This document shows positions 4,970 through 7,356 of a DNA stretch of 11,039 nt, in pieces. Each line of letters begins with the position of its first letter. Within the stretch, counting starts at the first letter, position 1. Location of the stretch: NCBI GenBank assembly GCA_016784245.1, contig JADHVA010000018.1:1-11039 (forward strand). The letters run 5' to 3'. The notes below the pieces were generated by a model. It saw nothing but the letters and a program-made list of their open reading frames with translations, did not search any database and had not been told where the DNA came from. The translations under genes and the position numbers were made by a program. The stretch comes from Nanobdellota archaeon (lineage in GTDB: Archaea > Nanobdellota > Nanobdellia > SCGC-AAA011-G17 > GW2011-AR17).

Positions 4970-6676
4970 ATGACATTGGAAAAAAAACTGGAATTACAAG
5001 ATACAGAATTAATATTAGTTCAACCTTTCAAAAGAATAGGGTATTTGTTTAGACCTGATAGGGTTTTTTTAGATAGTGAAAGTTATTGTCATGTTTTTGA
5101 TAGGGCATCTGGAGATACTTTTTTAGTAGAAGGGCCTCAAAGAAAAGTATTGAAATATGATGAAAGAATTTCTGGAGAGATTTTGGAAAAAGTTGTTGTT
5201 CCAGATAGACATTATACAGTAATTGAAAATCCACTTGATAATGAAACGGGAAAAGTACAATATGGAGAAAGAGAAGTTAGAGAAGGACCTAAAGTTTTTG
5301 CTTTGCACCCTGGTGAAGTATTAGCTCAAGAAGTTACAAGTGAACATATTTTAACAAAGAATGATGCTATACATGTACAAGCTTTATCAGATTTTGGAGA
5401 ACATAAAGCTGGTGATAAATTTTCTATTAAAGGACCAAGGAATTATGTGCCAAGTAAAGATGAAAAAGTATTAAGGCAAATAAAAGCAAAAGCATTATCA
5501 GATACAGATGGAGTTTATGTACAAAATGTTGATAGTGGCGAAGCAAGACTTGTAAAAGGTCCACAAGAATATTTTTTAGAAGCAAATGAAGATGCTTTTA
5601 GAAAAGAACTAACTGAAAATGAATTAGAAGCTTTAGGTTTACGAAGTCAAATAGGTAGAAGTGGAGTAAGAGTTCTTACTAGACAAGCTGCGAATACTTC
5701 TTTTCTAAAAAATAGTTCTAATGCTTGTGTTTTGGAACTTGAAGATAAAGAAGTTGTATTTTTGTATGATGGAAGTGATACTAGGATTATTCAAGGACCT
5801 AAGACTGAATTTTTAGGTCCATATGAAAGACCAAGAGTACTTTCATTATCAGGTGGAAAACCAATTAGACCTAATGCACTAAAAATTGCTTTGTTAAAAT
5901 TAGGACCTGATTTTATTTATGATCAGGTTATTGTGAGAACTAAGGATAATGCAAAACTTAAAGTAGATGTAACTTACAAATGGCGTTTTTCTGACAGTAG
6001 TGAGGAAGGATTAAGGAAAGCATTTAGTATAGATGATTTTGTAGGATATGCTGCTGAAACTTTATCTTCAGATATTAGAACTGTTGCTGCACAACATGAT
6101 TTTGAAGAATTTCATGCAGGTTCTTTAGAATATATTACTAAAGAAATTTTTGGAGAAGATGAGAAGTTAAAAGTTTTTGAAGAGAATGGTTTGGAAATCT
6201 TTGGAATTGATGTAACAGGAATTACTCCAGAAGATTCTGAAGTTGCAGATAAATTAAATGGTGCAATTAAACAGAATATGGAAATATACTGTGATAGACT
6301 TGTATTAAAAGCAAAGCTTGAAGCAGAGAAGCAAGAAGTTGAAGGTAAGAGAGATATCGAAAAGCAAAGGGCTGAATTAATAATTGCAACAATTCAGAAT
6401 GAGAGAACATTAGAAATTGAGAGATCAAAAATTAAAGCAGAAGGAAGAGAAATTGATGCAGAATCTGAAGCTGGACAAATTAGGATTGTTGGAGAAGCAA
6501 GAAGGAATGAAAATTTAGCTGAGTTATCTGCAAAAGTTGAAAGGCTTTCTAGAGAGGATGCAAGTAATTTTATTGAACTTGAACGTATCAAAACCTTTTC
6601 AGATACTGAGAAGTTAGTGATAGTTCCAACAGATGCACAATTTGTATTACCATATTTAGGAGGTGAGAAAAAATGA
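4970..6676 (+). CDS. Major vault protein (MVP) homolog, ~569 aa. It has ~5 N-terminal MVP repeats, an SPFH-like shoulder domain with the LGPDF motif, a cap-helix coiled coil and the start of a cap-ring.
   Basis: Direct comparison with rat/human MVP as remembered. VVVPDRHYTVIENP matches VTVPPRHYCTVANP. GPKVFALHPGEVL matches DPFPLYPGEVL. AIHVQALSDFGEHKAGDKF...KGPRNYVPSKDEKVL matches ALHLKALLDFEDKDGDK...EGPGTYIPRKEVEVV. VYVQNVDSGEARLVKG matches IYVQDVKTGKVRAVIG. LGPDFIYDQVIVRTKDNAKLKVDVTYKWRF...FSIDDFVGYA...FEEFH matches [30 protein letters not shown]...FSVPDFVGDA...FDDFH. The C-terminal coiled coil and KLVIVPTDAQF match KSTLITDGSTPINLF. Confidence 0.85.
   Translation: MTLEKKLELQDTELILVQPFKRIGYLFRPDRVFLDSESYCHVFDRASGDTFLVEGPQRKVLKYDERISGEILEKVVVPDRHYTVIENPLDNETGKVQYGEREVREGPKVFALHPGEVLAQEVTSEHILTKNDAIHVQALSDFGEHKAGDKFSIKGPRNYVPSKDEKVLRQIKAKALSDTDGVYVQNVDSGEARLVKGPQEYFLEANEDAFRKELTENELEALGLRSQIGRSGVRVLTRQAANTSFLKNSSNACVLELEDKEVVFLYDGSDTRIIQGPKTEFLGPYERPRVLSLSGGKPIRPNALKIALLKLGPDFIYDQVIVRTKDNAKLKVDVTYKWRFSDSSEEGLRKAFSIDDFVGYAAETLSSDIRTVAAQHDFEEFHAGSLEYITKEIFGEDEKLKVFEENGLEIFGIDVTGITPEDSEVADKLNGAIKQNMEIYCDRLVLKAKLEAEKQEVEGKRDIEKQRAELIIATIQNERTLEIERSKIKAEGREIDAESEAGQIRIVGEARRNENLAELSAKVERLSREDASNFIELERIKTFSDTEKLVIVPTDAQFVLPYLGGEKK
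6659..6666 (+). promoter_or_regulatory. Internal Shine-Dalgarno site (GGAGGTGA) inside the 3' end of the MVP-like gene, 7 nt upstream of the nucleosidase ATG. Marks translational coupling.
   Basis: ggaggtga is read directly. The stop and start overlap as ATGA at 6673-6676. Confidence 0.6.
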
Positions 6677-7356
6677 ATAAGGTAGTAATATTTGGTGCAA
6701 TGCCTCAAGAAATTGTAGCATATAATGAAAGAGTTAAGTCTGGTGAATGGGACTGTGAAGTCTTTGTAGAAAGTACTGGTGTTGGAAAAGTTGCAGCAGC
6801 GATGGTTACACAAAAAGCAATTTCAGAAAGAAATCCGGACTATATTATTTTTTCTGGAGTTGCTGGTGGATTAGAAGCTGGATTGAAAATTGGAGATATA
6901 GGTATCTGTGAAATTGGAATTGATTCTGATCTTGATGCTAGGTCTTGGAATCCAAGTTTGGAAAGAGGAGAACAACCTTTCTCAGGAAATAGAATCTATA
7001 GATCTAATGAAAATCTTGTAGATATTGCTTTTGATTCTGGAAATGATAAATTATTTAGAGGATATGTTGCAAGTGGTTCAGCTTTTTTGAATGCAGAAGA
7101 AAAAACTGATTTTGTTCAGAATATTTTGCCTGAACTGGAAACAGAGAATGTACTTCCTAATGTTTATGATATGGAAAGTTCTGCTGTGATGCAAGTTGCA
7201 AATCAAAATGGAATTCCAGTTTTAGTAATCAGAGCAGTAAGTGACATAATTGAAGGAAATTCTGCAAGTGATTTTAATGAATTTATTAATGGAGCTGTTG
7301 AAAATTATGTTGGAGTCGTAGATCATTTGATAAAAAAATGGAATGGAGGGAAATAA
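6673..7356 (+). CDS. mtnN: 5'-methylthioadenosine/S-adenosylhomocysteine nucleosidase (Pfs/MtnN-type, PNP_UDP_1 fold), 227 aa.
   Basis: VVIFGAMPQE matches E. coli IGIIGAMEEE. TGVGKVAAA matches SGIGKVAAA. IRAVSDIIEG...FNEFI matches VRAISDVAD...FDEFL. Confidence 0.8.
   Translation: MNKVVIFGAMPQEIVAYNERVKSGEWDCEVFVESTGVGKVAAAMVTQKAISERNPDYIIFSGVAGGLEAGLKIGDIGICEIGIDSDLDARSWNPSLERGEQPFSGNRIYRSNENLVDIAFDSGNDKLFRGYVASGSAFLNAEEKTDFVQNILPELETENVLPNVYDMESSAVMQVANQNGIPVLVIRAVSDIIEGNSASDFNEFINGAVENYVGVVDHLIKKWNGGK

Follow-up and report, generated by a model that had tools for sequence, protein, structure and literature searches.

An archaeal contig of 11,039 bp from a metagenome-assembled genome, with 11 genes and about 30% G+C, analysed here at its whole length (the window), carries at positions 4970-7356 a two-gene operon in which a homologue of the eukaryotic major vault protein (MVP) is paired with a nucleosidase of the MtnN/Pfs type, specific by its family for 5'-methylthioadenosine (MTA) and S-adenosylhomocysteine (SAH). 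The host of this operon is a DPANN ('Nanoarchaeota') archaeon. The MVP-like gene and MtnN form a conserved, co-oriented module in DPANN archaea, in bacteria of the Candidate Phyla Radiation (CPR) and in other bacteria, and, judged by the riboswitches that precede its bacterial homologues, the prokaryotic MVP-like gene seems to belong to an S-adenosylmethionine (SAM)/methionine regulon. The stop/start junction between the two genes is mundane; the conserved module and its link to SAM are the interesting and apparently new part. To explain the whole we propose, with slightly better than an even chance of being right, a SAM-responsive operon in which an MVP-type cage would act together with MtnN on adenosyl by-products.

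Loci were gathered with an alignment of 31 prokaryotic MVP-like proteins, which yielded 45 distinct MVP-seeded loci (16 from species genomes, 21 from metagenomes, 1 from viral contigs and 7 via exact-protein look-up; loci and proteins are given below by L and P numbers). Neighbours were scored by our own calling of open reading frames (ORFs), by clustering and by profile searches, some loci being too truncated to score. The hosts include DPANN archaea, labelled Woesearchaeota or Nanoarchaeota, and bacteria labelled Uhrbacteria, Falkowbacteria, Doudnabacteria, Parcubacteria or Anaerolinea; the contigs of L005 and L020 also bear bacterial 16S rRNA. The adjacency of the two genes, which an earlier note on this DNA had pointed out from the window alone, proved to be conserved, since 22 of the 45 loci have an MtnN gene on the strand of the MVP-like gene and at a distance of up to 5 kb; 16 of these pairs are directly adjacent, and every one of the 22 is co-oriented. 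Eight linked loci are of archaeal type, with direct adjacency in the window, L001, L002, L003, L018, L046 and L047 and a reversed gene order in L003. Fourteen are of bacterial type, with direct adjacency in L004, L011, L012, L015, L020, L021, L024, L027 and L034 and distances of 0.7-4.2 kb in L005, L006, L029, L035, L050 and L051. The nucleosidase gene stands 5' rather than 3' of the MVP-like gene in L003, L005, L011, L050 and L051, where the proximity is nevertheless kept, and every linked partner tested matches MtnN models best. MtnN is the only widely conserved neighbour and the only neighbour family common to more than 7 loci; clustering and phmmer searches of the flanking ORFs gave no third conserved partner gene. 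Genes for trmD, rpsP, radical-SAM, KH and DHODH proteins recur and were considered as partners, but were rejected as parts of one shared CPR neighbourhood.

This neighbourhood bears on the view that the linkage is neutral, that is, that the two genes stay together through inherited gene order or as passengers of a mobile cassette, without any functional relation. Many CPR loci share the arrangement rpsP - radical SAM ... trmD and are therefore not independent events. The pairwise identities of MVP-like proteins and of their MtnN partners are correlated (r=0.84 over 105 pairs), a comparison of sequences that shows co-inheritance, not necessarily interaction, and that vertical co-inheritance would also yield. 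Moreover, the archaeal and bacterial linked nucleosidases are not sisters in a neighbour-joining tree, which is too rough to settle between cassette transfer and independent recruitment. Against neutral linkage, however, stand the recurrence of the consistently co-oriented pair in archaeal and bacterial surroundings that are otherwise unrelated, the proximity kept across order flips, the lack of any other conserved neighbour and the independent SAM riboswitch classes before the MVP-like gene, and we regard it as very improbable.

These riboswitches were found when the bacterial loci were scanned with Rfam, originally for elements in the gaps between MVP-like and nucleosidase genes. SAM-I (RF00162, gathering score 44.4) and SAM-II (RF00521, gathering score 36) aptamers lie upstream of MVP-like genes or of units that contain them, further SAM-I matches near or below the threshold occupy the same relative position, and a covariance model of our own, built from eight SAM-I hits, added matches in L051 and L012 (Table 1). 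Two aptamer signature motifs occur in the gathered loci only at the SAM-I hit sites and in L051/L052; RNAalifold recovered only P2b and P3 from the eight SAM-I hits, and the Rfam scores were relied on. The layout in L025, L026 and L022 is that of an aptamer, a G+C-rich hairpin with a U-run (a terminator), AAGGAGG and the ATG. With no nucleosidase gene near by in L025, L026 and L013, it is the MVP-like gene itself that falls under the SAM control, and two unrelated riboswitch classes, SAM-I and SAM-II, are both placed before MVP-like genes. Like the met, metK and mtn genes of the known SAM-I (S-box) and SAM-II regulons, the MVP-like gene or MtnN-MVP unit of bacteria follows an aptamer, a terminator and a Shine-Dalgarno (SD) sequence. 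The archaeal window itself differs from these regulons in having no riboswitch. Upstream of some MVP-like genes without nucleosidase a candidate SAM-I-like element without P4 is followed by a terminator. Our own model scored it at 22-24 bits in two loci, and in L053 it was recognised from the sequence; in a three-sequence alignment 97.9% of the positions are paired, with two compensatory pairs (in P2), and it may be a variant of the SAM-I/IV type. Five bacterial loci (L009, L020, L021, L023, L029) have instead a divergent upstream TrmB-like helix-turn-helix regulator.

SAM-I and SAM-II riboswitches are normally OFF switches, and expression of the MVP-like gene would therefore rise at low SAM. 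To our knowledge, no vault-type or SPFH-type cage protein has been listed as a SAM-riboswitch-controlled gene, and in the literature searched, the coverage of which was incomplete, MVP homologues were nowhere linked to a nucleosidase or a SAM riboswitch. The suggestion of the earlier note that the pair responds to the load of methylation by-products has gained strong, if indirect, support from the riboswitches upstream of the bacterial homologues.

The MVP-like protein of the window matches the Pfam families Vault_2 (2.8e-8), Vault (1.7e-10), Vault_4 (7.2e-6) and Vault_3 (5.3e-13), all over the curated cut-offs, as well as MVP_shoulder (3.3e-28) and Band_7, and it aligns to residues 266-769 of rat MVP (E 1.9e-71, about 30% identity). 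Its AlphaFold2 model (pLDDT 83.8) consists of about five beta-repeats (31-310), a shoulder (314-420) and a 104-residue helix (423-526), the C-terminal 40 residues being of low confidence, and in a Foldseek search with this model vault cages come out on top (E 1e-40), followed by membrane SPFH cages. From these four lines of evidence the protein is a genuine but shortened MVP. It shares with the eukaryotic vault protein (rat 4V60, human 9BW5) the same repeat, shoulder (SPFH) and cap-helix domains, the predicted fold and the scaffold residues of the shoulder pocket. It differs in that nine repeats are found there and five here, the alignment to rat MVP beginning with R6-R9 and continuing onward; this alignment and the model show neither the full set of nine N-terminal repeats nor a confident cap-ring region. 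It also differs in the replacement of the basic diphosphate-binding pocket residues, in its operon with MtnN and in that the cage is a predicted one. The protein is soluble and would be expected to assemble into a cage. The family is rare, with 958 representatives at E<1e-3 and 117 at E<1e-30 among 1.84 billion, and the homologues P0002 and P0005 owe their greater length simply to additional MVP repeats. P0081 (L036), of 606 aa and from a marine sediment contig of 2.3 kb, combines an ATP-dependent DNA ligase domain with the C-terminal half of an MVP-like protein; this fusion may be an artefact of gene calling or assembly.

As the earlier note had stated, the eukaryotic vault partners are not encoded in the window: Pfam searches found neither TEP1 nor PARP4 among its 11 genes, and an Rfam E-value scan of the window found neither vault RNA nor another credible RNA family. 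A match at 6943-7094 to the human long non-coding RNA family WT1-AS_7 (27.6 bits against a gathering score of 50) lies inside the nucleosidase coding sequence and was taken as chance. A PARP-like context was seen elsewhere, in L044 (the L019 region, on a contig of 318-600 kb), where an MVP-like gene without nucleosidase is flanked by genes for a protein with a PARP catalytic domain, an SNF2 helicase and a zf-PARP protein (1-83, 229-2265 and 6609-7718). These flanks recall the PARP4 of eukaryotic vaults, but the Pfam matches are weak or sub-threshold.

The nucleosidase matches PNP_UDP_1 (7.6e-32) and passes TIGR01704 (89.8 bits against a cut-off of 73.8), whereas its match to NF004079 (1.6e-35, 122.7) stays below the stricter cut-off of 169 of that model; its best matches among structures in the PDB are MTA/SAH nucleosidases (8.5e-21). 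With residues numbered as in P0129, an Erwinia MtnN whose numbering matches that of E. coli MtnN, it keeps Glu12, Phe151, Met173, Glu174, Arg193, Ser196, Asp197 and Phe207, as do all 22 aligned relatives. In E. coli MtnN, Glu12, Glu174 and Asp197 are catalytic and the others bind the substrate. By these residues the enzyme is a complete and catalytically intact MTA/SAH nucleosidase MtnN, and it is predicted to hydrolyse MTA, SAH and 5'-deoxyadenosine. It resembles E. coli MtnN/Pfs (1JYS) and relatives also in its equal length and in all checked residues except position 76, but it has only about 30% identity to characterised enzymes. At position 76 of the alignment the canonical Ser is replaced by Val in the whole DPANN clade and by Thr in the bacterial MVP-linked clade, a replacement that may shift the substrate preference. 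Among 5.8 billion clusters the enzyme has 11 close relatives (38-67% identity), after which the identity drops to about 32%, and by this measure it forms with them a small, distinct clade.

It has also been considered that the genes belong to an anti-phage defence system, in which a nucleosidase effector of the PNP family (ATP- or nucleotide-degrading, similar to those of CBASS or Detocs) would act with a cage-like sensor or scaffold. The nucleosidases do show a weak PADLOC match to a CBASS 'PN-superfamily' effector (3.9e-9 to 4.5e-5), and eukaryotic vaults have been tied to immunity and NAD+ cleavage (bioRxiv 10.64898/2026.05.01.722283). MtnN models, however, score far better (1e-31 to 1e-51, mostly over the TIGR01704 cut-off), the window nucleosidase gives only a weak partial match (3.9e-9) and the MVP-like protein none in PADLOC, and control by SAM riboswitches and housekeeping neighbours are typical of metabolism and not of defence islands. 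We give a role in defence hardly any credence.

At the junction of the two genes the window reads ccatatttagGAGGTGAgaaaaaATGAataa (6650-6680). The SD sequence GGAGGTGA ends six bases ahead of the nucleosidase ATG (6673-6675), and the TGA stop of the MVP-like gene (6674-6676) produces a 4-nt overlap of stop and start. In these points the observation of the earlier note was accurate. GGAGGTGA occurs once over both strands of the window, where shuffled sequences predict 0.13 occurrences, and the pair is the only co-directional one in the window that overlaps. In the window, SD-like sequences precede the first two plus-strand genes as well as both genes of the operon, but none of the others; such a partial pattern is expected of archaea with leaderless first genes and SD-led downstream genes. 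By its sequence the arrangement is that of a translationally coupled pair. An ATGA overlap of 4 nt is the commonest overlap class in prokaryotic operons, and the junction by itself is therefore ordinary operon architecture. Both the SD and the start codon of the nucleosidase are unpaired in the predicted fold, the stability of which is not above that of shuffled sequences; sequestration of the SD, considered as a sign of obligatory coupling, was rejected on these grounds, and since SD and start are predicted to be accessible, independent initiation is as possible as strict coupling. From the overlap and the strong accessible SD, both proteins would therefore be made from one mRNA, with initiation that is either coupled or immediately adjacent.

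Co-transcription, which the earlier note regarded as fixed by the junction, is made plausible by a compact unit of exactly two genes, with the divergent regulator on the 5' side and the convergent Kae1 gene on the 3' side, while the transcript itself is a predicted one. The stops of the nucleosidase and Kae1 genes are 1 nt apart (7354-7360), and because there is no space for a terminator between them, the convergent transcripts must overlap or terminate within the opposing gene. A scan of the window for sigma-70 promoters and terminators gave the same counts as shuffled sequences and is uninformative for an archaeon.

The claim that the overlap sets a near-stoichiometric output could not be upheld. 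Overlaps of -1, -4 or -14 nt are found in 7 of 8 archaeal-type relatives (the -4 ATGA overlap also in L002, L038 and L042, -1 in L046, -14 in L001 and L047), whereas the bacterial relatives have gaps of 62-846 nt or a reversed gene order, and a GGAGG of its own before the nucleosidase gene. Tight coupling is therefore a trait of the archaeal branch and not of the module. This weakens the proposal that the nucleosidase is a stoichiometric cargo in the lumen of a vault-like particle, at a ratio given by translational coupling. That proposal can point to the overlap, the strong SD and the conserved adjacency; encapsulin operons offer an analogy, as do the vaults with their enclosed PARP4 and TEP1. 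But an ATGA overlap with an accessible SD sets no 1:1 ratio, the overlap is absent in bacteria, and in the alignment the linked nucleosidases are as long as free MtnN and show no conserved extension at either terminus; known cage cargos are, moreover, sub-stoichiometric, with about 20 PARP4 per 78 MVP (bioRxiv 10.64898/2026.05.01.722283). A cargo-targeting peptide or a Rosetta-stone fusion was looked for in the linked nucleosidases and MVP homologues without success: the 103 MVP hits contained no PF01048 domain, the 35 nucleosidase hits no Vault domain. A stoichiometric cargo is in our view quite improbable. The operon does resemble encapsulin with its cargo, SPFH-NfeD pairs and HflK/C-FtsH cages in that the gene of a predicted cage-former stands beside that of an enzyme, SPFH cages being the next-best Foldseek matches. 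It differs from such shell-plus-enzyme operons in that it lacks a cargo-loading peptide and a partner such as NfeD or a protease, and in that its MVP-like protein contains no transmembrane segment.

In the archaeal branch, control appears to lie with a regulator of the Lrp/AsnC type. A tandem Lrp/AsnC gene is divergent from the MVP-like unit in the window, L001, L003, L016, L017, L018 and L046, and divergent from the nucleosidase gene alone in L039 and L040/41. TATTTAAA or TATATAAA stands at the equivalent intergenic position in related archaeal loci. The motif CTAATTTACAAAA occurs once in the window, and the exact pattern CTAATNTACAAAA is found once each on the plus strand 5' of the MVP-like gene in L001 (3678), L002 (1640), L016 (5940), L017 (1803) and L018 (940) and twice in L046 (3837 and 3871), also 5' of the MVP-like gene. 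In L038 (827) it follows the nucleosidase gene and stands ahead of the next gene, and a one-mismatch variant lies 5' of the nucleosidase gene in L040. CTAATNTACAAAA would thus be a candidate promoter-proximal operator of the Lrp-type regulator. Two archaeal operons contain further enzyme genes of sulfur-amino-acid (methionine) or one-carbon metabolism joined to the unit: in L047 a Cys_Met_Meta_PP enzyme gene (6401-7615) overlaps the nucleosidase stop, and in L017 a gene for a 613-aa SHMT-Aldolase_II fusion (3585-5426) overlaps the MVP stop. The class II aldolase Pfam family of this fusion includes MtnB.

A further link to adenosyl metabolites may lie in the shoulder domain. In human MVP a pocket formed by neighbouring shoulder domains accommodates NAD+, ADP and ADP-ribose (PMC12280208), and the NAD+-cleaving enzymes PARP4 and TEP1 are housed in the vault next to this pocket (PMC12280208; bioRxiv 10.64898/2026.05.01.722283). 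We mapped the human pocket residues (PMC12280208) via the rat alignment, where 13 of 13 residue identities fit the numbering. P505, G519, P520, D521, F522, W545 and D566 are invariant across the 31 prokaryotic sequences, whereas the basic residues that neutralise the diphosphate are replaced (K506 by V/I, R511 by an invariant L, K573 by E/Q). Residues 271-330, which hold the pocket loop, and 181-195 are the two most conserved stretches of the family. This pattern fits a pocket that would have been retained for a different, non-anionic ligand.

The mechanism that we propose runs as follows. In bacteria the MVP-like gene or the MtnN-MVP unit would be controlled by the SAM-I or SAM-II riboswitches and terminators that stand before it, and in archaea by the divergent tandem Lrp/AsnC regulator and the conserved promoter-proximal motif. 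At low SAM a vault-type SPFH cage and MtnN would be co-produced; MtnN would destroy the inhibitory adenosyl by-products SAH, MTA and 5'-deoxyadenosine, with adenine being salvaged as well, and the cage would most likely work with MtnN on adenosyl metabolites, one route being the conserved shoulder pocket that lacks the diphosphate-binding basic residues. That the archaeal operon responds to the same SAM physiology, that an adenosyl ligand is bound and that MVP and MtnN touch each other are expectations from this scheme. A more far-reaching version, which we think is rather unlikely, would see in the ancestral vault an adenosyl-metabolite-handling cage, the shoulder pocket of which would bind SAH, MTA, SAM or 5'-deoxyadenosine, with MtnN as partner or enclosed and with SAM-sensing control, and from which the eukaryotic pocket and its enzyme cargo would have descended as from a prokaryotic clearance device for SAM by-products. 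It parallels the eukaryotic vault, since the latter houses the NAD+-cleaving TEP1 and PARP4 next to the pocket.

The main rival of the proposed joint action is co-regulation without contact, in which the MVP-like protein and MtnN would merely belong to one SAM/methionine-responsive regulon and the cage would serve another purpose, be it protection from stress, storage or a scaffold at the contact with the host. We consider this a real possibility, if not the probable one. It is favoured by the facultative linkage, which can be seen in both directions. The earlier note had held its reading to be refuted if related genomes carried the MVP-like gene without an adjacent nucleosidase and the two proteins did not interact; loci of the first kind do exist beside the 22 linked ones: about 11-13 MVP-like loci are without MtnN, comprising L007, L008, L010, L013, L017, L019/L044, L023, L026, L045, L048 and L053 with adequate flanks, and L009 and L025, each with one short flank. 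Conversely, five contexts of close relatives of the nucleosidase were inspected. In two of them (L038, L042) an MVP stop overlaps the nucleosidase start, the closest relatives, P0105 and P0112, being joined to an MVP stop in this way; in two (L039, L040/41) the same tandem Lrp regulator as in the window is directly followed by the nucleosidase without MVP, and in L043 neither is found. As each gene thus also occurs without the other, the linkage is strong but facultative both ways. The regulator and nucleosidase genes of L039 (2943-4699) and L040 (1991-3760) are followed by genes without Pfam hits (268+277 aa and 300+524 aa, respectively), and the DPANN contig of L042 carries, with its MVP-nucleosidase pair, an intein-interrupted gene for an RtcB RNA ligase (5087-8035).

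Co-regulation would also account for the observation that each gene alone is found under like control, SAM-I or SAM-II with MVP only (L025, L026, L013) and the Lrp regulator with the nucleosidase only (L039, L040), for the absence of a targeting extension or a fusion, and for the varying order and spacing in bacteria, where unrelated ORFs intervene. It explains less well that the proximity survives rearrangements across two domains of life and that the archaeal overlaps are tight, which suggests more than a shared regulation.

Several points count against the joint action of cage and enzyme that we prefer. Beside the facultative linkage, the occurrence of the nucleosidase clade away from MVP, the shared synteny of many CPR loci and the failure to find a targeting peptide, a fusion or any other conserved partner, these concern the control and the pocket. 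Neither Rfam, by gathering score or E-value, nor our own model detected a riboswitch in the window or in those loci that are confidently archaeal, and the SAM responsiveness of the window would follow by analogy and through an uncharacterised Lrp-type regulator. That low SAM induces expression is assumed from the way in which SAM-I and SAM-II riboswitches usually behave. The pocket argument comes from an alignment, and the conserved residues could be purely structural.

Table 1. Features of the archaeal window and SAM-related elements of bacterial relatives (locus and position; scores in bits).
Feature	Position	Strand or orientation	Remarks
Tandem (double) Lrp/AsnC-type regulator gene, 324 aa	3879..4853	-	Divergent from MVP-like gene; Pfam HTH_24 x2, HTH_AsnC-type x2, AsnC_trans_reg x2
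TATA-box-like element TATTTAAA of the MVP-like/nucleosidase operon	4876..4883	+	Read from sequence; putative archaeal promoter function
Conserved motif CTAATTTACAAAA	4889..4901	+	Between TATA-like box and expected transcription start; candidate operator for Lrp-type regulator
SD-like GGAAGGAG	4953..4960	+	9 nt 5' of MVP-like ATG; from sequence
MVP-like gene, 568 aa	4970..6676	+	From ATG 4970 (ORF opens at TTG 4943); five MVP repeats, SPFH-type shoulder, long cap helix
SD GGAGGTGA for nucleosidase gene	6659..6666	+	Within final MVP-like codons; unique in window; predicted unpaired
ATGA stop/start overlap	6673..6676	+	From sequence
MTA/SAH nucleosidase gene (MtnN/Pfs-type), 227 aa	6673..7356	+	Catalytic residues intact; TIGR01704, NF004079 and PDB matches
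Archaeal Kae1 gene	7358..8329	-	Convergent, bounds operon; TIGR03722 431 bits vs cut-off 375
SAM-I (RF00162)	L026:5815-5915	Same strand as MVP	68.2; MVP ATG at 5986
SAM-I (RF00162)	L025:784-889	Same strand as MVP	67.8; MVP ATG at 959
SAM-I (RF00162)	L004:5567-5670	Same strand	60.9; then MVP, then nucleosidase
SAM-I (RF00162)	L005:2827-2931	Same strand	57.3; then nucleosidase, four ORFs, MVP
SAM-II (RF00521)	L013:5861-5940	Same strand	61.8; 51 nt before MVP ATG
SAM-I, near/below threshold	L008:5602-5738	Same relative position	43.1
SAM-I, near/below threshold	L022:1177-1303	Same relative position	36.3; inserted hairpin
SAM-I, near/below threshold	L011:186-292	Same relative position	32.1
SAM-I, near/below threshold	L006:3397-3514	Same relative position	30.9
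Match of own covariance model	L051:3264-3399 (L051/52)	Upstream of nucleosidase-ORF-MVP	83.6
Match of own covariance model	L012:5478-5603	Upstream of MVP-nucleosidase	50
Candidate P4-less SAM-I-like element + terminator	L019:5744-5849 (= L044:3816-3921); L048:3822-3921; L053 ~4609-4704	Upstream of MVP-like genes without nucleosidase	

The surroundings of the operon in the window contain some further genes of note. A short way downstream, at 8362-10274, an IMP dehydrogenase gene on the minus strand and a NUDIX hydrolase gene on the plus strand place purine and nucleotide metabolism near an adenine-releasing enzyme, an arrangement that is not kept in other loci. At 900-2276 an extremely acidic protein of 458 aa is encoded, with an N-terminal signal-like segment (secreted or anchored), Ig-like domains of the CARDB and FixG_C types, a transmembrane segment at the C-terminus and a poly-Asp tail; the protein, which has a syntenic orthologue in L016, probably resides on the cell surface. 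Beside it, at 84-758 and likewise kept in L016, lies the gene of a 224-aa protein without a Pfam match, for which PADLOC gives PDC-S70 matches (6.6e-7).

MVP homologues as such have been reported before from bacteria, Asgard archaea, archaea at large, Borgs and phages (PMC12962969, PMC13607799, bioRxiv 10.1101/872010, 10.1101/2024.11.05.622173, 10.1101/2023.11.10.566534). The Asgard homologues resemble the protein described here in their five repeats, shoulder and cap helix (PMC12962969), and a Helarchaeota contig (L014) is among our gathered loci. The passages searched in these prokaryotic, Borg and phage papers differ from the present analysis in that they mention no nucleosidase partner and no SAM-dependent regulation; the Borg paper notes histone and exonuclease neighbours instead.

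The function of the vault has been obscure for about 40 years, and its prokaryotic relatives are known only from in-silico surveys. With the present loci, prokaryotic MVP gains a concrete physiological context, the handling of SAM and of the by-products of the methyl cycle, to which three lines of evidence point: an operon partner, MtnN, with well-understood chemistry, two independent classes of SAM riboswitches, and a shoulder pocket of altered charge. This context runs parallel to the reports of 2025-26 that the shoulder of the human vault binds NAD+ and ADP-ribose and that the vault houses NAD+-cleaving enzymes. A cage protein would thereby join the SAM riboswitch regulons, and the module bears on how SAM and purine salvage are managed in the genome-reduced DPANN and CPR symbionts.

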